Assembly: GCA_030539175.1 (NCBI GenBank) | Contig: JAUNSN010000019.1 | Location: 9,208-24,008, forward strand | Direction: 5' to 3' | DNA length: 14,801 bases | Source of the DNA: a bacterium | GTDB taxonomy: Bacteria > Bacillota_I > Bacilli_A > RF39 > UBA660 | In this document: positions 1 to 14,801 of the stretch, one piece after another | How the letters are laid out: every line of letters starts with the position of its first letter | How positions within the stretch are numbered: position 1 is the first letter of the stretch | The notes under the pieces: generated by a model | What the model saw: only the letters and a program-made list of their open reading frames with translations | The model's database searches: none | Told to the model about the DNA's origin: nothing | Translations under genes and position numbers: made by a program

Positions 1-1000
1 GCATATTGTCGTCGAAGCCCTTTGTGTCTACCGAATATCTTCCTGATATAGAAGAAACTTCATTTATCTTTTCAATCATCTTTATATACTTATAAGAACA
101 ATCTGGCAAAGTATCTCTACCATCAGTAATTACATGACAAAATACTTCTTTTACATCACTATTTTTTAAATATTTAACCATTTCAATATAATGATTTATA
201 TGACTATGTACTCCTCCATCACTAACTAGTCCGATAACATGAACTCTTTTATTTTTTATTTGATCATTTAATATTTTGTTATTAAATAAAGTTTTATCAT
301 TTACCTTTTCATCAATTCTTACCTTACTTTGATAACTAACTCGACCACTTCCAATAGTTATATGACCAACTTCACTATTACCCATTTGACAATCAGATAA
401 ACCAACAGCACGACCAGATGCCTCTAAACTACAATGAGGATATTTATTTAATTTATCTAAATTAGGAGTCTTAGCAGTTAATACTGCATTACCTTTTTTC
501 TCTTTTCTAATTCCTATTCCATCCATTATAAGTAATACTACTACTTTTTTATTTTTCTCTTTTAAAGTAGTAAGTATATCACTTGCAACATTATAAAAAT
601 TCTTATCTATATATTTTGCTAAATTACTCACTAATAACAAATTATATTTTTTCCCATTAGTAACCATTACTAATATATATACAACTAATAAAAGAAAAAT
701 TAAAGATATACCCAAACTACTAATAGTTAAAGTAGAAGATATTCCATCTATTTCATCTAATAAACTATAACTATTAAATAAAGATGAATTAAGTACTAAT
801 TTAGTAATAACATAATTAACAAAACAATCTACTAATCCTAAAACAACAGCTTCCATACACTTAATTCTAATAGTTTTTCTTTTAATATATATAAAATACA
901 TAACCAAAGGAATAAAGTAAGTAAGAACTCTAAACACTGGTATAAACACACTAATCATAAAGCCACTATACATAAACAAATACAATATATTATTCTTCAT
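1..1000 (-). CDS. gpmI: 2,3-bisphosphoglycerate-independent phosphoglycerate mutase (iPGM), 3'-truncated at the window edge, with an N-terminal multi-TM extension of about 150 aa
   Basis: Hand translation of the minus strand from ATG 1000..998 stays open for 333 codons to position 2. It is absent from the ORF track because it runs off the window. iPGM hallmarks are present: VVLLIMDGIG, TPNLDKL, CQMGNSEVGH (catalytic Ser loop), LVSDGGVHSH, ITDGRD, ISGRY. Four hydrophobic segments precede the catalytic core. The start overlaps the upstream ORF stop by 11 nt. Confidence 0.8.
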   Translation of the reverse strand, partial: MKNNILYLFMYSGFMISVFIPVFRVLTYFIPLVMYFIYIKRKTIRIKCMEAVVLGLVDCFVNYVITKLVLNSSLFNSYSLLDEIDGISSTLTISSLGISLIFLLLVVYILVMVTNGKKYNLLLVSNLAKYIDKNFYNVASDILTTLKEKNKKVVVLLIMDGIGIRKEKKGNAVLTAKTPNLDKLNKYPHCSLEASGRAVGLSDCQMGNSEVGHITIGSGRVSYQSKVRIDEKVNDKTLFNNKILNDQIKNKRVHVIGLVSDGGVHSHINHYIEMVKYLKNSDVKEVFCHVITDGRDTLPDCSYKYIKMIEKINEVSSISGRYSVDTKGFDDNM

Positions 1001-1490
1001 TGTTTACCTCCTTTTTCTTTTTTATAACATCTAACCCCTCACTCATTAAATCCTCTATTGATAATAAATCACTCTCTAACACTTCCCTTAAAGTATAATC
1101 TTTTCCATGCTTATATTCAATAAACACCTCATCTAACTTCTCACATGGTAAATAATAGTAATAATCAACAGATTCCCCTATTAACAAAGATGGTTCAACA
1201 CATTTATCTTTCTTATCAACTATTTCATAAGCAAAATAATTTTCATCATATTTTATATTAAACCAACCAATTATCCATTTCTTATGATATATTTCATCTT
1301 CTTTTATATTATATTTAATTATTTTATAATACAATCCATAGTATTCTATACTACCACCATCATCATGATAAACAAGTGGAGCACTAAATATCGGAACAAA
1401 GTTTATTAACATACAAAAGATATCTACTAATATTAAAGTTAATAAAAATATAATAATTCCCCTAATTGTTTTCTTAACTGTTTGTTTCAT
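990..1490 (-). CDS. Hypothetical membrane-anchored protein (single N-terminal TM helix), no recognised family
   Basis: ORF-track ORF 990..1502 begins at a GTG with no spacing to any RBS. The ATG at 1490 lies 9 nt after GAGGGTG and is the likelier start. The N-terminus IIIFLLTLILVDIFCMLINFVPIF is hydrophobic. The ORF overlaps the trmB stop and the gpmI start, implying an operon. Confidence 0.55.
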   Translation of the reverse strand: MKQTVKKTIRGIIIFLLTLILVDIFCMLINFVPIFSAPLVYHDDGGSIEYYGLYYKIIKYNIKEDEIYHKKWIIGWFNIKYDENYFAYEIVDKKDKCVEPSLLIGESVDYYYYLPCEKLDEVFIEYKHGKDYTLREVLESDLLSIEDLMSEGLDVIKKKKEVNNEE

Positions 1491-2118
1491 TTTCTTTAAC
1501 ACCCTCTAAATAGTTAATATTCATTCCTCTATTAACAAATCTATCTTCATATTCCGTTGTTATATTTTCTATATTTTCTCTATGCAAATCATTAGTTACT
1601 ACAATTAATTTATACCCATAATTACATAATACTTCCTTAGAATAATTAAATAAATCTATATTATCTGTCTTCATCTTAATATGACAATTACTTTTAAATA
1701 TTTTATCATACTTTTTTAAAAACATAATACTAGTTAATCTTCTTTTATGATGTTTCTTCTTTGGCCAAGGATCCGAAAAGTTAAGTAATATCATATCTAT
1801 TTCTTTGGAAAAAACATCTTCTATATTCAAAGCATCCATACATATTAGTTTTATATTATTAAGTTTTAATTTTTCTAACCTTTTAACTGCTTTTATCATA
1901 ACACTAGGATATTTCTCTATTCCAATATAATTAATATTATTATTAACAATTGCATTATCAATAATAAACTTTCCCCTACCCACACCTATTTCAACATATA
2001 TTAAATTATCATTATTAAAAACACTTTTCCATTTTCCCTTATAAATACTAGGATTCTTTATTACATAAGTAGAACTATTAACTATATCGCTAGCACCCTT
2101 TATATTTCTAAGACGCAT
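1474..2118 (-). CDS. trmB: tRNA (guanine46-N7)-methyltransferase
   Basis: N-terminus MRLRNIKGA, SAM-binding motif VEIGVGRGKF, IGIE, and the signature FSDPWPKKKHHKRRL. The size (214 aa) is typical of Gram-positive TrmB. Confidence 0.9.
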   Translation of the reverse strand: MRLRNIKGASDIVNSSTYVIKNPSIYKGKWKSVFNNDNLIYVEIGVGRGKFIIDNAIVNNNINYIGIEKYPSVMIKAVKRLEKLKLNNIKLICMDALNIEDVFSKEIDMILLNFSDPWPKKKHHKRRLTSIMFLKKYDKIFKSNCHIKMKTDNIDLFNYSKEVLCNYGYKLIVVTNDLHRENIENITTEYEDRFVNRGMNINYLEGVKENETNS

Positions 2119-3151: not shown

Positions 3152-3319
3152 TTATTTTTTTTCTTTATGTGCAGTATTCTTACGACACCTTGGACAATAC
3201 TTATTTAACTCTAAACGGTCAGTTGTATTTTTTTTATTCTTACTAGTCTTATAATTTATTTCTTTGCACACAGTACATTGCAAATCAACTAAAGCCCTAG
3301 CTTCGCCTTTTTTAGCCAT
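3152..3319 (-). CDS. rpmG: 50S ribosomal protein L33
   Basis: The ATG at 3319 is preceded by AAGGAGGAGG, so the upstream extension in the ORF track is rejected. Zinc-ribbon pattern CTVC...CPRC and the L33 signature [10 protein letters not shown]...[19 protein letters not shown]. Confidence 0.9.
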
Positions 3320-3360
3320 AGTTTTCCTCCTCCTTAAATAACACACCCTATTATAACAAA

Positions 3361-5427
3361 TTATTTAAAAATTTCAAAGTATTTATGAGTTATTTGTGAA
3401 ACTAATCGTTTATTTATTGAATTAGAATAGTTTGAACCATTATGTTCATGAGAAATATTAGGAGATACAGCAACAATACTCATAACTGGATTATCAAATG
3501 GAGCAAATCCTCCAAAGGTTGAAGTAATTGTCTCTGTATCAACATTTCCATCTCCATCAGTATCTATAAAACTTTGAGAAGTTCCTGTTTTACCACCAGC
3601 ATTAGAAGAATAATCTCCCATATAACCACTTCCTAAAATACCATTCATTACTGCATTTAAACCTTGTCTTATTCGATTCATATATTGTTCTTCTAAATCT
3701 ACTTCGCCTTCTACTTTAACTTCAGCATTATATATCTTTGAACCAAGTTTTTCTTTTTCCGTACTTGGAGCATATACTTCTTTTAATAAATAAGGAGTTA
3801 CTCTAAGACCAGAATTAGCTAAAGTATTCATATACTTAGATAATTGAATAGTAGTATATGTATCATACTGACCAATTGCAAAATCAAGTAAATGTCCCCC
3901 TAACCTTGAAGTACCTTTATAACCTAAACTTTCAACTGGCAAATCAATTCCCGTTTTTTCACCTAATCCATAAGATAAATACATACTTCGATATTTATCG
4001 AAAGCTTCTTCATCAATAGAAATAGCATCATTTACAACGTATTCACTTCCCCCTACTCTAAGAGCAATTTTAAACTGATAGACATTAGAAGAAAGCTGTA
4101 AAGCCGTAATATCATTAACATAACCTAAATCTCGCCAAGAACATTTAGCAGGAGTTGCCTTAATATACAAACATTCATCAAACATTGTTTCACCTATACT
4201 AATAGCACCATACTTATAACCAACACTCATTGATGCCCCCTTAACTATAGAACCAGCAGTAACTGGTAAAGTTACAATACCAGGAGTATAATCTTGAATC
4301 TTCTTATTATTATTATCATCATAAACAACCTTTTTACCAGCCATTGCAAGTATCTCTCCAGTAGAAGGATTACTAACAATAACAAAAGAATGATCATAAT
4401 ATTCTGTATTAACATCTCCTTTAGCATTCATAACCTCATAAGACAATATATTCTCTACTTCCCGTTGTAAGTTTATGTCAATCGTTAAGACAATATCATT
4501 GCCCCTACTTCCCGCATCAACTAACTCATAACTATTATCATTAAGAACTCGATAAGTTGCCTTTGTACCTTTTAAATATTCTTCATATTGATATTCTAAA
4601 TAACTAATACCTACTCTATCATTTAATGCGTAGCCCTTATTAACATAATCTTCTGCTAATTCTGCTGGTATTCCCTGAGTATCACTAGAAACTTTACCTA
4701 AAATACTCTTAAAAACATCCCCATAAGGATATATTCTCACCCAATCTAACTTAGTATTAAAACCATCTAACTGACTAACATTCTCAGATATAATGGCATA
4801 TTCTTCTTCAGTAACATCAACATTCTTAATAGTTTTCTCATCATATGAATACCCCTTATTCATTAAATAATATAAATAAGCCGCATGTCTATCTTCTTCA
4901 TTAAACTTCTCGATATCTTCATTAGTCACTCTTTCTAACTTTATCTTCTCTATATCATCACTAGTTATTTTTCTCTCACTTAAACTTTTCCTTTCCTCAT
5001 CAGTAATCCTTGCCTTAGCTTCGTCAGGATTCAACTTAACCCAAAAGTTTTTCAATTGACTAGTAGTAAGTTTTGTATAATCAACAGTCAAATACGACAA
5101 CACCTTATAAGCAAGTTCTATTTCTTCTTTTACCGTAACACCTTTACTCTTCTTATAATATATTGTCTTTATAGCTTTATTATCTACTAATAAGTTATAA
5201 TTTCTATCATAAATTCTTCCTCTAGGAGCAGAACTACCCTCAACAGTAGTCTCTACTGCAGCAAGTAATTTTTCTTGATATGACTCACTATCAAGTATTA
5301 TTACAGAAAACAATTTAAAAGTTATTAAAGAAAATATCATTATTATTACAATTATTAAAAAAGTATATCGTTTCTCTATAATATCTTTTAAAAATCTTTT
5401 TTTCTCTTTTTTTCTTGCATTCTTCAT
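3361..5427 (-). CDS. Class B penicillin-binding protein (PBP2-type transpeptidase)
   Basis: 688 aa with an N-terminal TM anchor and the dimerisation-domain motif [10 protein letters not shown]. Transpeptidase motifs are SxxK (SIVK), SxN (SSN) and KTG (GGKTGTSQ). RBS AAGGAGGAG lies before the ATG at 5427. Confidence 0.9.
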
Positions 5428-7940: not shown

Positions 7941-8801
7941 TTAATTTCTAGGATGAGTTCTATAATAAACTTCCATCATATGTTCATCAGTTACATGTGT
8001 ATAAATACTAGTTGTATTTAAAGATTCATGACCTAGTAATTCTTTAACACTCATTAAATCCATTCCATTATTTAATAAATGAGTCGCAAAAGTATGTCTT
8101 AATGTATGGACAGTTGCTTTTAATTCAATACAACTATTAACTAATATTTTATCAAAAACTTTCCTTACCCCTCTTGTAGTAATATTACCACCCATTTTAT
8201 TTAAAAAAAGATAATCACTATTATACTTATTTAACATACCACGAACATCTAAATAATTACTTAATGCTTTTTCACAATAACTTCCATAAAATACATATCT
8301 TTGTTTACTTCTTTTTCCCAATACTTTAATTGATAAATCATCATAATTAATATCACTTAATTTTATATTAACCAATTCACTAATTCTAAGACCAGTTGAA
8401 TATAACATTTCAATTATTAAATAATTTCTTTTCCCTAAAACAGTAGTAACATCAATCGTATCTAATATTTTATCAATTTCATCGATTCTAAAAAAAGTTG
8501 GTAAACACTTCTCATACTTAGGATTCTTTATTTCATCAAAATAATTATATTTAACAATTCTTTCTTTTAATAAATAATTATAATATCCACGTAATGATGA
8601 TAACTTTCTAGCAATTGTCTTCTTAGTTAATCCCCTATCATATAAAGCACTTAAATAAAGTCTAACATCATCATTAGTAATATCTTGATAATTAACACTT
8701 ATAAAAGCAATAAACTCTTTTATATCGCATTTATAACTGTTTATAGTATCAACAGAATACTTTTTTATTACTTTTAAATATTGTAAGTATTTATCTACCA
8801 T
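7941..8801 (-). CDS. Tyrosine site-specific recombinase, XerC/XerD family
   Basis: N-terminal SAM-like core-binding domain (YLxxL...SxxTIxSYxxDIxxF). The catalytic residues are the Arg in GLRISEL, HTLRHTFATHLL, LGHESLNTT and IYTHV. The C-terminus ends in HPR, as in Xer proteins. Confidence 0.85.
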   Translation of the reverse strand: MVDKYLQYLKVIKKYSVDTINSYKCDIKEFIAFISVNYQDITNDDVRLYLSALYDRGLTKKTIARKLSSLRGYYNYLLKERIVKYNYFDEIKNPKYEKCLPTFFRIDEIDKILDTIDVTTVLGKRNYLIIEMLYSTGLRISELVNIKLSDINYDDLSIKVLGKRSKQRYVFYGSYCEKALSNYLDVRGMLNKYNSDYLFLNKMGGNITTRGVRKVFDKILVNSCIELKATVHTLRHTFATHLLNNGMDLMSVKELLGHESLNTTSIYTHVTDEHMMEVYYRTHPRN

Positions 8802-9603
8802 TTTTATATCCTAAATCATCAAAAGTTAGTTGTTCATCAACAACATGTTTATTTTTATTATTATAAATATAAGATTTATTCAAAGAATCTTTATTAGAAA
8901 TACAAAAAGCTATTAAAGGATTAGTCGACCCATCATTTATCCATGTACTTAAAAAATCACCATACATCTTAAGTGTATATTTATTAAACTCTATACCATA
9001 TTTTAAAAAAGTATTCGCAACAGTATCAAGATTATAATAATCACACTCTTCTTTATAAGCTTCTCTTTGCTCTTCTACATCTTGCATTAAAACATCTTCT
9101 TTTTTCCGAGGATGTAACAGAAAATAAGCATCACGATATTTCCTATAAGTACTCAAATAAGAAGAAACTATTTTTCCTATCTCATATATCTCATTATCAT
9201 CACTATATTTCTCTACTTGAGAATTATAGTGATATACATACCAACATCTTCTCACAAAATCATTTTTACTTGTTAAGGTTCTTTTACAAGCAGATGGACA
9301 AATAAGTTTAATTAAACTATCAATATTATCTTTACTACTACATATATACTTTAGATATTCTAATTTTATAGACTCAGTTTCTTTTAAGTTTTTAGCATCA
9401 TTATTATAAACAATATTTAACTTTTTCTTCTCTTTATACCTAATAGTTACTTTACCTTTAGTCATACCATTATCATTAAGTAATTCTTTTACACTTTCAT
9501 ATTTAGAAGTATAGTTATCAATTTCTTTTAAATTACAATTACTCATTAATATTCTGCTCTTGCCAAATTCATCAATTAATACTAACTCATATGTTACTTT
9601 CAT
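8791..9603 (-). CDS. Hypothetical protein (270 aa), no recognisable family; translationally coupled to the Xer gene
   Basis: Long open frame in a stop-rich AT genome. RBS AAGGAGAG lies 7 nt before the ATG at 9603. The stop overlaps the Xer start by 11 nt. No TM segment or catalytic motif was recognised. Confidence 0.6.
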   Translation of the reverse strand: MKVTYELVLIDEFGKSRILMSNCNLKEIDNYTSKYESVKELLNDNGMTKGKVTIRYKEKKKLNIVYNNDAKNLKETESIKLEYLKYICSSKDNIDSLIKLICPSACKRTLTSKNDFVRRCWYVYHYNSQVEKYSDDNEIYEIGKIVSSYLSTYRKYRDAYFLLHPRKKEDVLMQDVEEQREAYKEECDYYNLDTVANTFLKYGIEFNKYTLKMYGDFLSTWINDGSTNPLIAFCISNKDSLNKSYIYNNKNKHVVDEQLTFDDLGYKNGR

Positions 9604-9632
9604 TAATATCTCTCCTTACATCAATTAGCAAT

Positions 9633-9662
9633 ATTTTACCACATTTATTAGTAAAATGACAA
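9633..9662 (-). promoter_or_regulatory. Candidate sigma-A promoter for the hyp270-xer-sigma unit
   Basis: Minus strand: TTGTCA (9662..9657), 18-nt spacer, extended -10 TGgTAAAAT (9641..9633). It lies about 30 nt upstream of the RBS and ATG at 9603. Confidence 0.4.
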
Positions 9663-9733
9663 CTAATATTAAAAATGTAGCCTACTGGTTTACATAACAG
9701 AAAATAATCATCATATATAATAATTAAAAAGAG

Positions 9734-9762
9734 AAAAAACATAATATTTATATAATATTATG
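9734..9762 (-). terminator. Intrinsic terminator after the XRE-family gene
   Basis: 9-bp stem cataatatt / aatattatg (9740-9748 / 9754-9762) with a 5-nt loop, followed on the minus strand by TTTTTTcTcTTTTT. Confidence 0.6.
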
Positions 9763-9778
9763 CAATAATTATCAAATT

Positions 9779-10033
9779 TTAATTATTTGGAACATACTCT
9801 AGTATATCTTCTATCTTACAATCCAACACATAACACAGTTTAGAAAGAACATCTAAGTCAACCCTTGTAAGTGGAGCATTTTTATAATATGATTGAACCG
9901 TTTGATGTTTTAATCCCGTAAGAATACTCAAACGATAAACAGAAATTTTACGTTCGTCCATTATTTTTTTAATCTTGATAATTATATTACCATAGTTTAA
10001 AGAATCGGTAATTTCTCTTTTTCTTGTATCCAT
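9779..10033 (-). CDS. XRE/Cro-CI family helix-turn-helix transcriptional regulator
   Basis: 84 aa. HTH segment ISVYRLSILTGLKHQTVQSYYKN and the typical C-terminal LSKLCYVLDCKIEDILEY. Monocistronic: terminators lie on both sides. Confidence 0.8.
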   Translation of the reverse strand: MDTRKREITDSLNYGNIIIKIKKIMDERKISVYRLSILTGLKHQTVQSYYKNAPLTRVDLDVLSKLCYVLDCKIEDILEYVPNN

Positions 10034-10161: not shown

Positions 10162-11259
10162 TTATAAATCAGACAAATCTGCTCGATTACGTAAGAAAGA
10201 TGGTATTTCCAAATCACTTTCGCCATCACTCATTGAGGATATCTTTTCACGTGATATTGGATCTCTTTCCTTGGTTCCTAAATTATGATATAGTGGATCA
10301 CTACGTTGCTCAAAACCAGTTGCAATAACAGTAACAATAACTTCATCAGCTAAATTTTCATTAATAATAGCACCAAATATTGTATTAATATCAGTATTAG
10401 CCGCACTTCTAATAACCTCAGCAGCTTCCTCTACTTCATACAAAGTTAAGTTAGAACCACCAGTAACATTAATTATTGCATCAGTCGCTCCACTTATTGA
10501 AGTTTCCAACAATGGACTAGATACTGCTTGTTTAGCCGCTTCAACAGCTCTATTATCACCAGCACCAACACCAATACCAATTAAAGCATTACCTCTATCT
10601 TGCATAACTGTTTTTACATCAGCAAAGTCCAAATTAACAAGTCCAGCAGTTGCAATTAAATCAGAAATAGACTGAACACCACGTAATAAAACATTATCAA
10701 CTTCACGAAAAGCTTCTAACATTGGAGTAGATTTATCTATCAATTCTCTTAATCGATCATTAGGTATTACTATTAAAGTATCAACATACTTTTTTAATTC
10801 TTCTAACCCAGCAAGAGCTTGTTCCATCCTTCTTCTTCCCTCAAAAGAAAATGGTTTAGTAACAATACCCACAGTCAAAGCTCCCAAATCTTGGGCAATT
10901 TCGGCAACTATAGGAGAAGCACCAGTTCCTGTTCCTCCACCCATGCCACAAGTAACAAAGACCATATCCGCCCCCTTTAGAACTTCTTCAATTTCTTTCT
11001 TACTTTCTAAAGCCGCCTCTCTACCAATTTCTGGATTAGCCCCAGCACCAAGACCATCCGTTAACTCACTACCAATTTGTAACTTATTAGTTGCTTGTGA
11101 ATTATTTAAAACCTGTAAATCAGTATTAGCAACAATAAACTCAACGCCTTTTAACCCTGACTCTATCATTCTATTTACTGCATTACAACCTCCCCCACCA
11201 ACACCAATTACTTTTATTTTTGCTAAATTATCCATTTCTAAACCAAACATATTTGTCAT
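10162..11259 (-). CDS. ftsZ: Cell division protein FtsZ
   Basis: [17 protein letters not shown], the tubulin signature GGGTGTG ([13 protein letters not shown]), NDRL, and the C-terminal conserved peptide DLEIPSFLR. The start overlaps the ftsA stop (TAATG), and the RBS AGGAGG lies inside the ftsA 3' end. Confidence 0.97.
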
Positions 11260-12512
11260 TATTTTTCCTCCTTACTACTAAATAAACCACCAAAAAGTTT
11301 TGTAATCTTTGTATCATCATGTTTCCGAGCTTTATCATCACTAGGAGTAACCAGTTGCAATTCTTCCAAAGAATTTACCATAGAATAGTCTTTACCCCTA
11401 ACTAACATCTTATGATGAAAATATTTTATCATCCCTAAACTTGTAGTATATTTATTATCTCTTACCCCCAATGTTGGTATTGAATATATTATAACATCTT
11501 TTCCAAAAATTTCATAGGCTAAATACTTAAATGATTTAATTTCTGTCATTCCCCCAGTTATTATAACATAACTAATACTTTGTTTAGTTAATGATAATAT
11601 TTGTTTTTTTACTATCGCCATTATCTCTTTTAATCGCGACATTATAACTTCACAAGTTTCTAATTGATTTATTTTCACCATCTCTCCATTACTATTTTTA
11701 ACCTCATAAACATCATTTAATTGAGTAAAACGTTTATGAGCACATCCAAACTTTTCTTTCATTTCTCGAGCATCAATTACATTAATTCCAAACACTACAG
11801 ACAAATCATTATCAATATTCTTTCCCCCTAGTTGAATTACTGAAGTATTCATTAATTTTGCCTTATTAACTATTGATACAGTAGTTGTTTGATGCCCTAA
11901 GTTAATAACTGCCCCTACTTGCTTATCTAACTGATTATTCCGAACTTCGTAATAATCTCCAATACCAGACAAAGTAATATCAACAACTTCTAATCCCGCT
12001 CCAACTACAACACTAACAACTGAATAAACATTTTTCTGGGGAACAGAAACAATAATACCTTTCATCAGCAATTTTTTTCCTTTAATACCAACTGGAAACT
12101 CTAAATTCTTAATATCATCAACCGTAAAATTAATTGGTATAACAGTAACCAGTTCAAAATCAGGATCTATCTTTTTATAAACACTATTCTTAATTATTTT
12201 ATTAACATCAAAACTAGTAACCCCCTCATCAGATAAATCTAATGACTCATTTACAAGTATAAACTTCACATCATAAGCTGGAACTCCAACAATAACCTTT
12301 TTAATTGGAATACCTAGTAAATTCTCTACTTCTTTACTACCATCTTTTATCGCATTAATTGCTAAATTGGCATCCACTATTAAACCTTTTCTAATTCCAG
12401 AAGATTTCTTAGCATAAGAAGCTAGTACTACAACCTCTTTACCAACCACTTCTCCAACTACAAACTTAATCGTATCCGTACCAATATCAATACTTGTATA
12501 AATCTTTCTCAT
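11259..12512 (-). CDS. ftsA: Cell division protein FtsA
   Basis: Actin-like fold N-terminus [18 protein letters not shown], an ITGGMTEI phosphate-2-like motif, and a C-terminal amphipathic tail KLFGGLFSS. Canonical position upstream of ftsZ. Confidence 0.95.
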
Positions 12513-12637
12513 CTATATCGAGCTCCCATTTTTCTATCTCAAAACAATTATAACCTAATTTTATAAAAAATAAAAGTGATTATTATAACAAATATCTAAA
12601 TATTTTACCCAACAACACCATTTTACTACATTTTTAC

Positions 12638-12666
12638 AAAAAAACAACTACCATTTACTAGTAGTT
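12638..12666 (-). terminator. Weak candidate terminator between the DGR operon and ftsA
   Basis: Minus strand: aactac-tagtaaatg-gtagtt (6-bp stem), then gTTTTTTTg (12638-12644). The stem is short and AT-rich, so confidence is low. Confidence 0.35.
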
Positions 12667-12697
12667 ATCATTTTTTTTACAATATCCTCAGAATCAT

Positions 12698-12742
12698 AAT
12701 TATATCAATCAATAAAATATCATTTTATTGATTGATATAATT
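12698..12742. repeat. Perfect 21-bp inverted repeat with a 3-nt loop, spanning the RT stop codon
   Basis: aattatatcaatcaataaaat (12698-12718) and attttattgattgatataatt (12722-12742) are exact reverse complements. The RT stop TAA (12727..12725) lies inside one arm. No U-tract follows on either strand. Confidence 0.9.
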
Positions 12743-13750
12743 TACTCGACTATTTACCTTCTTCATTAAGTTATAACTATTACCATGCATTGCATGACCA
12801 ACAATCGAGTTATAACTTAATATAAATCTCTTCTTATCTAACTTATTATCACTATATAACTTATTCCATAACTTTATTCTTTTATTAACATTCTTCTTAA
12901 AACTATTTCTTACTAATCGATATTCTTCATATATTCTATAACCACAAAAATTTATCCCCATCTTATTAGGATAATATCTACTTTTAGGATTTAATGTTAA
13001 CTTTAATTCTTTATTTAAAAATTCCTCTACTAATCTATATATTAACTTACTCTTTATTTTATCCTCTACCAATATAACAAAATCATCCATATATCTTACA
13101 TAATACTTAATCTTTAATATATCTTTTATATAAAAATCTAACTTACTTAAATATATATTAGCAAAATACTGACTACTATAAGCCCCTATCCCTATACCAG
13201 TAGAAGCATCATCCATATATATAAAACTCTTAGTTATCTCTAATATCTTCTTATCACTTATCTTATCCGCTAATATCTCATATAATATAACCTTATCTAT
13301 ACTATAAAAATATTTCCTTATATCTAACTTAATAACATAATACCCCGCATATTTTTCTCTCATCTTTCTCATATACCCCTGTAATACATCCACTGCCTTA
13401 TGTGTCCCCCTATTATCTAAACAAGCATAAGTATCTTTCTTAAACCTAACATCAAAATAAGGCTTTATCACCTCAAACGTATACCAATTATTAACAACCC
13501 TATCTCTATACGGCAGAGCCTTAATCACTCGTTCTTTAGGTTCATATATAACAAATTCTCTTGGTTTTCCCACTTTATAAGTATTATTCTTTAAACTATT
13601 TAATATATTAATCACATTAGTTTCAATATCCATATTAAAACTAAGAACTTCCTTAGTATTTTTACAACTAGAACTTACTCGATGCGATGCCTCTAACAAT
13701 TTGACAAAAGTACAACATTTGTCAAATTGGTTGCGAACAGTTTTTCCCAT
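12725..13750 (-). CDS. Diversity-generating retroelement (DGR) reverse transcriptase
   Basis: 341 aa and collinear with Bordetella phage BPP-1 bRT as recalled: MGK start, REFVIYEPKERVIKALPYRDRVV, TYACLDNRGTHKA, KLDIRKYFYSID, the DGR-specific GIGIGAYSSQYFANIYL (IGxxxSQ), YVRYMDDFVIL (YxDD), GINFCGYRI, and the C-terminal SIVGHAMHG. No intron maturase/endonuclease domain or retron-type domain is present. Confidence 0.9.
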   Translation of the reverse strand: MGKTVRNQFDKCCTFVKLLEASHRVSSSCKNTKEVLSFNMDIETNVINILNSLKNNTYKVGKPREFVIYEPKERVIKALPYRDRVVNNWYTFEVIKPYFDVRFKKDTYACLDNRGTHKAVDVLQGYMRKMREKYAGYYVIKLDIRKYFYSIDKVILYEILADKISDKKILEITKSFIYMDDASTGIGIGAYSSQYFANIYLSKLDFYIKDILKIKYYVRYMDDFVILVEDKIKSKLIYRLVEEFLNKELKLTLNPKSRYYPNKMGINFCGYRIYEEYRLVRNSFKKNVNKRIKLWNKLYSDNKLDKKRFILSYNSIVGHAMHGNSYNLMKKVNSRVNYINQ

Positions 13751-14090
13751 TTTTCATCCATCCATACAATAAATTAGTCACATCCGTTATCTTTCTTGCC
13801 CAAGCTTCATAATTTCTTACATTAATAAATCTTTGACTATAAGATATTCGAGATAATACTTTTATCATCTTAAGTTCAGCATCTATTTCATTAAATAAGT
13901 GATATCTATTAGTTTTATCAGATTCTTTATATGCTTTAATAATTAATCTCATCGTATTATAACTTACATTTTTAATTTGACTTACTAACGATAGTTTTTC
14001 ACTTTTAGGATATTTTTTAACTATCATCTCTGTATAGTATAAAAGACCCATCATTTGTTTATATATTAACAACCCATCAATACTATTCAT
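13722..14090 (-). CDS. avd: Avd-type accessory variability determinant (four-helix-bundle / 23S rRNA-IVS protein family)
   Basis: 122 aa and predicted helical. Family pattern YPKSEKLSLVSQIKNVSYNTMRLIIKAY and a C-terminal W..K...V..LLYGWMK. The ATGA overlap with the upstream ORF implies coupling, and there is a 29-nt out-of-frame overlap with the RT start. Confidence 0.8.
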   Translation of the reverse strand: MNSIDGLLIYKQMMGLLYYTEMIVKKYPKSEKLSLVSQIKNVSYNTMRLIIKAYKESDKTNRYHLFNEIDAELKMIKVLSRISYSQRFINVRNYEAWARKITDVTNLLYGWMKNGKNCSQPI

Positions 14091-14437
14091 ACCAATTCCC
14101 TTAATTCATTCAATTTTTTAAAAGCATCTATTGGTGTTAAATTATCAAAGTCTATTTCTTTTAACTTCTTAGTTAAAAGATGCTCCGCTTGTTCTTTATC
14201 TACTTCAACCATCACAATATCCAAATTCATATTTTTAAATATCAACAAATACTTATCCAAAGATTTAATAGGAAACCCACATCTTTTCATCTTACCAAAA
14301 TATCCCAACTTTAAAGTAGTAACTTGCGATATTTTAACTGCATCTTCTTCTAAAAATAAATAAAATATCCCACTTTTAAATAAATATATCTTATCTTTAT
14401 TTTCAGCCTTTAGTTTTTTATACTTCTCTTCGTACAC
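14087..14437 (-). CDS. MutS domain-I-like small protein (MSL-type DGR accessory ORF)
   Basis: 116 aa with a GTG start after [43 protein letters not shown] aligns with the E. coli MutS N-terminus [48 protein letters not shown] aligns with AGIPYHAVENYLAKL. No ATPase or clamp domains are present. Confidence 0.7.
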   Translation of the reverse strand: [116 protein letters not shown]

Positions 14438-14496
14438 TTTTCTTCTTCCCTTCTAACTTTCAATCAACTCTCATAACAGCATCATTTATAAGAGCC

Positions 14497-14536
14497 TTCC
14501 TAAAACCTAAAAGTAAAAACTTTTAGGTTTTAGGAA
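14497..14536. repeat. Perfect 17-bp inverted repeat with a 6-nt loop in the non-coding spacer upstream of the DGR operon
   Basis: ttcctaaaacctaaaag (14497-14513) and cttttaggttttaggaa (14520-14536) are exact reverse complements. Each arm contains a tandem cctaaaa heptamer. No U-tract follows on either strand. Confidence 0.9.
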
Positions 14537-14702
14537 AACAATAGTTTTCCCACAACATTCTAATGCGCAAATACTCTACTAACTAGTTTGTTGCTAGTAA
14601 ATGTTTATTACAATACCTAAAGATATCATAACAGGACATTGGTCTTGACTATCAGACTATTGATGTTAATCCTTAAACTAACATATTTAAAGTATATTTG
14701 AT

Positions 14703-14801
14703 AGTAATCGCAAGCCACAAAGGCCGACGCCCGCGAGCCGTTGTTATTGTTCGCATTGCCATTGTTGTTGTTAAAGTTGAACGCGCCCGCATTGGCACCA
14801 T
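14703..14801 (-). repeat. DGR template repeat (TR) candidate, truncated by the window edge; the alternative is an undiversified variable repeat (VR)
   Basis: Minus-strand frame from 14799 reads GANAGAFNFNNNNGNANNNNGSRASAFVAC. All 22 adenines in the first 30 codons sit in 11 AAY codons. About 54% G+C by hand count (14711-14801), against AT-rich flanks. Contains the GC block GGCTCGCGGGCGTCGGCC (14739..14722). Confidence 0.7.

Follow-up and report, generated by a model that had tools for sequence, protein, structure and literature searches.

Which protein is encoded at the head of the DGR operon studied here, and what might so small a part of MutS do next to a reverse transcriptase (RT)? The gene that raises this question is located on the minus strand at 14087..14437 of the analysed stretch of DNA (14,801 nt, in the following called the window). 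It encodes 116 aa from a GTG start, as given by its ORF translation together with a Pfam MutS_I match, and a purine-rich GAAGGGAAG is found about 8-16 nt 5' of the start codon. The best explanation as a whole, to which we assign a probability of roughly 55%, is that the gene is the MSL gene of a chromosomal DGR and that its product is a mini-MutS that would shield the element's products from repair.

Genes of this kind have been listed before. Wu et al. 2018 (PMC5758913) report MSL (MutS-like) genes in 16/372 DGRs, with products of 112-283 aa, under the label 'Architecture D'; they also list three RTs with a MutS_I-like extension. Since only about 4% of the surveyed DGRs carry MSL, it has to be considered auxiliary. 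In the same survey, MSL always comes with avd. The published MSL (or Msl) genes and the window gene are alike in being small, homologous to MutS and placed inside the cassette together with avd. That is, the window protein is within the published length range, matches MutS_I, and its gene is placed together with avd in a cassette next to the RT gene. It is a member of the described MSL family of DGR accessory genes and a real, well-conserved gene. Regarding its identity and its anatomy, i.e., a MutS head followed by a MutS tail, we are close to certain. A parallel is provided by the HRDC accessory proteins, which likewise represent a small nucleic-acid-binding module that was borrowed from a DNA-repair/helicase protein into DGR cassettes; HRDC, however, is of another fold and family and never shares a cassette with MSL (PMC5758913). 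As had been stated in the original prediction for this locus, MSL ORFs were noted in DGR surveys with no mechanism assigned (Wu et al. 2018; Macadangdang et al. 2024). They have been on DGR accessory lists since 2017, and no experiments on MSL were found in the DGR literature that we searched.

The head of the protein, residues 1-80 (14198..14437, minus strand), is predicted to adopt the fold of MutS domain I, based on AlphaFold2 and Foldseek. Within the Pfam scan, MutS_I (PF01624) matches with E=6.7e-11 and 42.9 bits (gathering cut-off 20.6), whereby residues 3-85 are aligned to profile positions 4-91 of 113. NCBIfam's full-length mutS models reach 31-33 bits, with cut-offs of 480-642. The AlphaFold2 model, computed with eight homologues as input, has a mean pLDDT of 88.5 and shows for the head the order helix, beta-hairpin with the Phe, helix, beta, helix, beta. 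When this model is compared with the PDB by Foldseek, the best 50 matches are all MutS, MSH6, MSH3 or MSH2 chains and cover domain I. The best one is 5yk4_B (E=3.8e-5, rmsd 1.3 Å across 79 columns), and superpositions on MutS domain I are in the range of 1.3-1.9 Å. The similarity to domain I, which had been proposed by eye along with a check by structure and profile, is thus significant by both. The further claim that no connector, clamp or ATPase domains follow also holds: MutS_I is the sole domain reported in the Pfam scan of the whole protein, which ends at residue 116, while all five MutS domains were recovered for E. coli MutS as control. MutS2/Smr was dropped as an alternative identity, given that proteins of this type are without domain I.

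In MutS, the Phe of the Phe-X-Glu motif wedges against the mismatched base, and the Glu contacts that base. The alignments pair G23-I24-F25-Y26-L27-F28 of MSL with G34-D35-F36-Y37-E38-L39 of E. coli MutS; the codons for G23 to L27, i.e., the counterpart of E. coli G34 to E38, are found at 14357..14371 (minus strand). The wedge Phe is preserved as F25, which is located in the AlphaFold2 model directly past the beta-turn at the beginning of strand 2, while the glutamate is replaced by Leu (L27). This substitution had been noticed in the original prediction (GIFYLFL vs GDFYELF) and turns out to be family-wide. Among 146 stand-alone relatives, both G23 and F25 are found in 145/146, the residue after the Phe is Y in 119 and F in 23 cases, and the Glu position is occupied by I (100), L (30), V (9) or N (4), with Glu itself absent throughout. 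D32, A33, K52, C53, G54, F55, P56 and Y63 are near-invariant in the same set, and within MSL, conservation is highest in domain I. This strong conservation argues for a nucleic-acid-binding role. Regarding the lost glutamate, Lebbink and colleagues reportedly found in 2006 that Glu 38 of MutS serves both mismatch discrimination and the authorisation of repair. E. coli MutS with the mutations E38T, E38A or E38Q has been crystallised on a G.T mismatch (PDB 1wb9, 1wbb and 1wbd, according to their entry titles), such that the lost Glu does not speak against MSL sitting on a mismatch.

The original prediction described the protein as domain I only. This does not hold, because the remaining residues, about 81-116, are a homologue of the C-terminal dimerisation/tetramerisation domain of MutS, as judged from profile comparisons. 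The respective part of the gene is 14090..14197 (minus strand), and AlphaFold2 predicts for it a helix-loop-helix with helices at residues 81-93 and 102-115 that ends at the protein's C-terminus, as in MutS. We used profiles of the tail only, since from a broad profile of 106 full-length MSL sequences the MutS tail gains just 6-7 bits extra. Compared with the PDB, the top 3 matches (profile of 7 sequences) and the top 5 matches (profile of 28 sequences) are MutS chains that include the C-terminal domain. They comprise 2ok2 (the best, E=0.005-0.006), 3zlj_C and the full-length 7ou2, each aligned end to end at the C-terminus. When the 28-sequence profile was run against 5.8 billion proteins, 30 short proteins were retrieved (best E=8.7e-7), nearly all of which look like C-terminal fragments of MutS. 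Many of these fragments show the beta-clamp motif QLSFF and then ...LDVNNLTPIEALNKLNEIKK-stop, two of the 30 are named MutS by JGI, and several are annotated with Pfam PF27441 (MutS_C). One match is located at the end of a mutS gene with a frameshift, preceded by MutS_I to MutS_V.

Complete MutS proteins agree with this picture. MutS of Bacillus velezensis scores 25.0-27.3 bits against the tail profiles over residues 828-861 of 861, and for E. coli MutS, 16.4-18.1 bits are obtained. The former was picked via its N-terminal domain, so that its score is independent of the tail, and the choice of E. coli MutS was likewise tail-independent. As background, we scored 2,264 ORFs of Clostridia loci with a similar AT-richness, the best of which obtains 7.4 bits. 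A comparison of MSL tails with MutS tails by hhalign gives a probability of 98.4%, which is partly circular given that 9/11 of the MutS tails had been retrieved with the MSL profile. With the 35-residue tail as sole query, the Pfam scan reports nothing; the Pfam copy that was scanned is without a MutS_C model, and E. coli MutS has no match in it past residue 797. In the precomputed annotation of 120 MSL relatives, PF27441 (MutS_C) is assigned to 0/120 and only PF01624 is present. Since Pfam's MutS_C model is silent on these relatives, the assignment of the tail is based on our own profiles.

Taking head and tail together, MSL corresponds to MutS minus residues ~97-820, i.e., a 'mini-MutS' without the roughly 720 residues of the connector, core, clamp and ATPase domains. 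It resembles bacterial MutS in the domain I fold with its Phe wedge and in a helix-loop-helix at the same terminal position. Unlike bacterial MutS, it is without domains II-V and hence has no ATPase, clamp or MutL interface. It further differs from MutS in the replaced Glu of the Phe-X-Glu motif, in the last ~22 profile positions of domain I, which are missing, and in the QLSFF-type beta-clamp motif, which is absent from MSL. The calculated pI of the window protein is 8.8, with a basic head (9.1) and an acidic tail (5.7).

The C-terminal domain of E. coli MutS (residues 823-853, helix-loop-helix) stabilises dimers, mediates tetramers and matters for repair as well as anti-recombination (PMC1636413; PMC3783165). 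Mutation of its D835/P839 loop abolishes tetramers but not dimers (PMC3783165). Given this, MSL could work mainly by its tail: it would pair with the C-terminal domain of the host's MutS in mixed dimers or tetramers and thereby either poison tetramerisation and anti-recombination or hitch Avd-RT-cDNA to MutS and, via MutS, to the replisome, with domain I being secondary. Beside the homology of the tail to this dimer/tetramer-contact domain, the pattern of conservation speaks for such a role. The best-conserved tail positions form the loop [DN]-x-[DNE]-x-[LI]-[ST]-[P/I/V] plus the next Ala, and this part includes D98 and P102 of MSL, the counterparts of D835 and P839. In addition, a loss of tetramerisation by itself costs E. 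coli 5-10 fold in repair (PMC1636413). We nevertheless regard a mainly tail-based function as unlikely. The strongest conservation is found in domain I, where G23, F25 and D32 are invariant or nearly so, while R840 of E. coli MutS is not conserved in the MSL family and is Ile in the window protein. The idea is further weakened by members that have no tail at all: the tail is present in 129/160 family members, and 31/160 (~19%), among them fusions to Avd, lack it. That is, the tail is not universally needed.

The genes around MSL define the element. The window carries a chromosomal DGR in which MSL heads an operon of the order MSL-avd-RT, and the cassette as a whole reads TR-MSL-avd-RT. The avd gene (13722..14090, minus strand, 122 aa) matches Pfam bAvd with E=7.7e-18 and 65.4 bits (cut-off 40); NCBIfam DivGenRetAVD also matches with E=5.7e-17, which is under that model's cut-off. 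It is followed by the RT gene (12725..13750, minus strand, 341 aa; Pfam RVT_1, E=9.6e-14), which overlaps avd by 29 nt. Stop codon of MSL and start codon of avd overlap by 4 nt within ATGA (14087..14090, minus strand). Translational coupling of MSL and avd, as put forward in the original prediction, may be read from this overlap, which is its one basis. Downstream of the RT gene, ftsA, ftsZ and other housekeeping genes are found. The G+C content is 27%.

The 3' part of a TR is found at the very end of the window (the final 90 nt, 14712..14801, minus strand), with about 275 nt between it and the MSL gene downstream. This fragment is G+C-rich and contains many AAC/AAT codons. The fragment can be aligned to the TRs of three related loci (L009, L003 and L076), which show the order VR-TR-MSL-avd-RT and in which nearly all differences between TR and VR concern adenines of the TR. 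The window thus ends within the TR, with the VR and the target gene expected outside; a VR partner of the fragment was not found within its 14,801 nt. A Logan contig of 5.6 kb with the exact MSL protein ends 373 nt upstream of the gene, i.e., short of the remaining TR, the VR and the target.

To put the arrangement into context, we collected the MSL family by an exhaustive profile search. At E<=1e-3 it provided 2,633 cluster representatives, a set into which genuine MutS proteins will also fall; the number decreases to 363 with E<=1e-10 and to 74 with E<=1e-30. The family is visible only by such a search; a single-sequence word-index search found just 10 relatives. Almost all of the family representatives listed are stand-alone proteins of 100-145 aa. 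A locus scan with one genome per species resulted in 80 MSL loci, nearly all of them titled as Clostridia, Clostridium or Bacilli MAGs and many from gut samples. An avd and/or RT gene is found beside MSL in 66/80 loci (both in 60, one in 6). The most frequent order is that of the window (MSL>avd>RT, 36 loci), followed by a convergent one (MSL> <RT<avd, 13 loci), MSL>RT> <avd (10 loci) and a single divergent arrangement, while in 6 loci only avd or only RT is seen before the contig ends. In the 14 loci with neither gene, the contig mostly ends too early (12/14, at most ~1.6 kb from MSL). L081 and L065 have room on the contig, yet no DGR genes, and are the sole such cases among the 80 loci.

The short overlap in the window is in accordance with these loci, since MSL and avd overlap by 4 nt in 9/36 of the MSL>avd>RT loci and by 1-14 nt in most others. 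TR/VR pairs with A-specific mismatches are located within ~6 kb of the MSL gene in 39 of the MSL loci. The same picture emerges when starting from the RT: the window RT has five metagenomic relatives with 42-56% identity, and all four with sequence upstream (4/4) show MSL-avd-RT. The closest RT relatives belong to cassettes with A-specific TR/VR pairs. The linkage of MSL to DGRs is therefore strong, and both the proposed tie to avd and the expected conservation of the ORF next to related DGR RTs were found. A tblastn search against a phage collection gave no MSL match and IMG/VR gave 2 MSL loci only; the MSL subfamily of the window is thus essentially chromosomal. Finally, two family members (P0120 and P0139), which diverge from one another by more than 50%, are independent natural fusions of a tail-less MutS_I to bAvd. 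Such MSL-Avd fusions argue for a physical cooperation with Avd.

The fusions, together with the overlapping genes, put domain I into the RT-Avd complex and thereby suggest another role, namely in cDNA synthesis. Here, MSL would, with Avd-RT, grip the mismatched hybrid of template RNA and cDNA at adenine sites and either aid extension past misincorporations or protect the cDNA. This is in line with the established DGR mechanism, according to which mismatches arise first in the RNA:cDNA hybrid (Macadangdang et al. 2024). Most DGR RT-Avd pairs, however, perform mutagenesis without any MSL (PMC5758913). Furthermore, domain I of MutS is known as a binder of mismatches in duplex DNA, and we found no evidence for binding of RNA:DNA. 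A contribution to cDNA synthesis thus appears doubtful to us, and slightly more so than an action through the tail.

We therefore return to the shielding of the heteroduplex, for which the following course of events can be sketched. MSL would be made together with Avd and RT and would oligomerise via its tail or, in some relatives, be fused to the Avd oligomer instead. Via its Phe wedge, it would bind the distorted, densely mismatched duplex in which the adenine-mutagenised cDNA is paired with the variable repeat. There it would occupy the heteroduplex without signalling, such that the host's MutS is kept from restoring the parental sequence. The lack of an ATPase is central to this idea, as it implies no sliding clamp and no call for MutL, i.e., MSL would occupy its substrate silently. 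A binder that is multivalent and does not signal would suit a substrate in which mismatches are only a few base pairs apart, and MutS would be blocked locally. A point against this course of events is that much of the DNA affinity of MutS comes from its clamp domains; an isolated MutS domain I is not known as a good DNA binder and may bind only weakly.

That repair restricts DGRs is known from published data. In a Bacteroides DGR without Msl, a knock-out of mutS raises retrohoming 5-10 fold, in an all-or-none fashion (Macadangdang et al. 2024, bioRxiv 10.1101/2024.11.15.621889). An engineered E. coli DGR system, described in a 2026 preprint, adds a dominant-negative MutL and cites natural MutS-like genes as the reason. 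As a point against the shielding, MutS was reported as not required for retrohoming in a Bordetella phage (PMC5758913). The dominant-negative MutL E32K, as used in engineered DGRs and recombineering, is similar to the proposed MSL in its effect only, i.e., a co-expressed protein lets mismatched cDNA or oligonucleotides escape repair. In contrast to MSL, it is an unrelated engineered mutant that hits the ATPase function of MutL rather than the mismatch, and the effect of MSL on repair is hypothetical.

The earlier suggestion that the protein shields or marks the heteroduplex is plausible, and it fits both the restriction of DGRs by MutS and the use of dominant-negative MutL. In its general form, i.e., an oligomeric, ATPase-less mismatch binder that acts with Avd-RT and would shield the heteroduplex from the host's MutS, we hold the mechanism tentatively and at somewhat less than even odds; DNA binding, oligomerisation and repair antagonism are all presumed in it. 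A more specific version is possible at slightly lower odds still. Here, the DGR would encode in MSL a factor against repair that combines both ends of MutS, namely an array of Phe wedges that is either self-oligomerising or docked to MutS. Such an array would recognise the dense cDNA:VR mismatches by avidity and block MutS at this site, leaving repair intact genome-wide.

The same combination of a mismatch-binding head and a tail that could contact the host's MutS might also serve the opposite purpose, i.e., MSL could recruit host mismatch repair or orient it toward the cDNA strand, and so promote fixation rather than block repair. The published 'all-or-nothing' outcome of repair leaves room for such a choice of strand (Macadangdang et al. 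2024). We consider this very unlikely, since MSL is without the connector and ATPase domains by which MutS engages MutL, and since the mutS knock-out raises retrohoming in the sole system tested (Macadangdang et al. 2024). That the ORF is a functionless chance ORF or the decaying remnant of a mutS gene might be suspected from its annotation, as the identical 116-aa protein from a MAG is labelled only 'hypothetical protein' at NCBI, but this is refuted in practice by its hundreds of diverged relatives, which are of the same length and share invariant residues, by the conserved position in DGR operons and by the confidently predicted fold.

MSL bears on two questions of the DGR field, namely how mutagenised cDNA is fixed in the target and how the mismatched intermediate escapes repair. 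The two kept MutS modules and the Avd fusions turn the 'MutS-like' label into a directly testable function. If true, an anti-repair MSL would be the natural counterpart of the dominant-negative MutL used by engineers, and could offer directed evolution with DGRs a compact, locally acting replacement for global repair knock-outs. The MutS_C-like tail and the family-wide loss of the Glu are mentioned neither in Wu et al. 2018 and Macadangdang et al. 2024 nor in the 2026 preprint. As far as the searched literature shows, the MutS_C tail, the Phe-X-hydrophobic motif and the Avd fusions have not been described.

The spacer between TR and MSL holds one further feature, a 21-bp hairpin at 14494..14539 (minus strand) that was found by RNA folding. 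A function as terminator was rejected, given that no U-run succeeds the hairpin and no terminator-like site is called. Its folding energy is -28.7 kcal/mol, with z = -6.75 compared to shuffled sequences, and the hairpin is only partly conserved, namely in L003.

In the related loci with the cassette order MSL>RT> <avd (10 of 80; arrowheads give gene direction), we often find a second, more distant paralogue of the MutS-like accessory gene (MSL), which encodes 143-171 aa and is located directly upstream of avd. Examples are L011 (7728-8231, minus strand) and L028 (8034-8525, minus strand), and the paralogue is also present in L032, L050, L052, L060, L061, L069, L073 and others. It carries the motif G-x-F-Y..YGKDAYI, ends C-terminally in ..ERRKV and does not have the TP-type tail. 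That is, judged by sequence, some DGRs encode two different MutS-domain-I proteins.

Unusual architectures are also observed among the cluster representatives of the MSL family. The representative search revealed two natural single-chain MutS_I-bAvd fusions without the MutS_C-like tail, i.e., P0120 (237 aa) and P0139 (227 aa). P0148 is a predicted giant protein of 2323 aa with four MutS_I domains, three DUF285 repeats and an ArdC-N-like segment, and may either result from gene-calling read-through or genuinely exist as a multi-wedge protein. The MSL proteins P0028 (202 aa), P0048, P0051 and P0083 are longer at the N-terminus by about 70 residues, and in P0028 this additional segment is a Cro/C1-type HTH_26 domain. 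Since an internal MSK, the normal start of the family, is retained, a subset of these extensions may be start-codon miscalls.

In many related loci (L005, L008, L015, L017, L041, L045, L046, L049, L050, L061, L064, L075, L090 and L092), the RT gene is broken into two or three ORFs while MSL is intact. Such split RTs could reflect assembly-error frameshifts or decaying cassettes.

The closest locus sharing the gene order of the window is L009, whose DGR target is a 697-aa protein (3254-5347, plus strand) with the VR in its C-terminus (...GWYSDYGYVAFAPRPWFGRGGG...). By analogy, the target of the window's DGR, which lies beyond the window, is expected to be similar to this protein.

Between TR and the MSL start codon, the window contains a perfect 21-bp hairpin (14494-14539, minus strand; -28.7 kcal/mol, z=-6.75) with no U-run 3' of it. 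Among the related loci, L003 shows partial conservation of it. The hairpin could be part of the DGR RNA spacer or a regulatory element.

Immediately downstream of the DGR, and on the same strand throughout, follows ftsA-ftsZ (10162-12512, minus strand), with 212 nt (12513-12724) separating the RT stop from the ftsA start. A tyrosine recombinase gene (7941-8801) overlaps by 11 nt a 270-aa ORF without Pfam match (8791-9603, minus strand), which in turn overlaps a 51-aa ORF (9587-9742, minus strand); an HTH_26 gene (9779-10033) is located just upstream. This region may represent a small integrated element adjacent to ftsZ. A further ORF without Pfam match, encoding 170 aa, is found at 990-1502 (minus strand).
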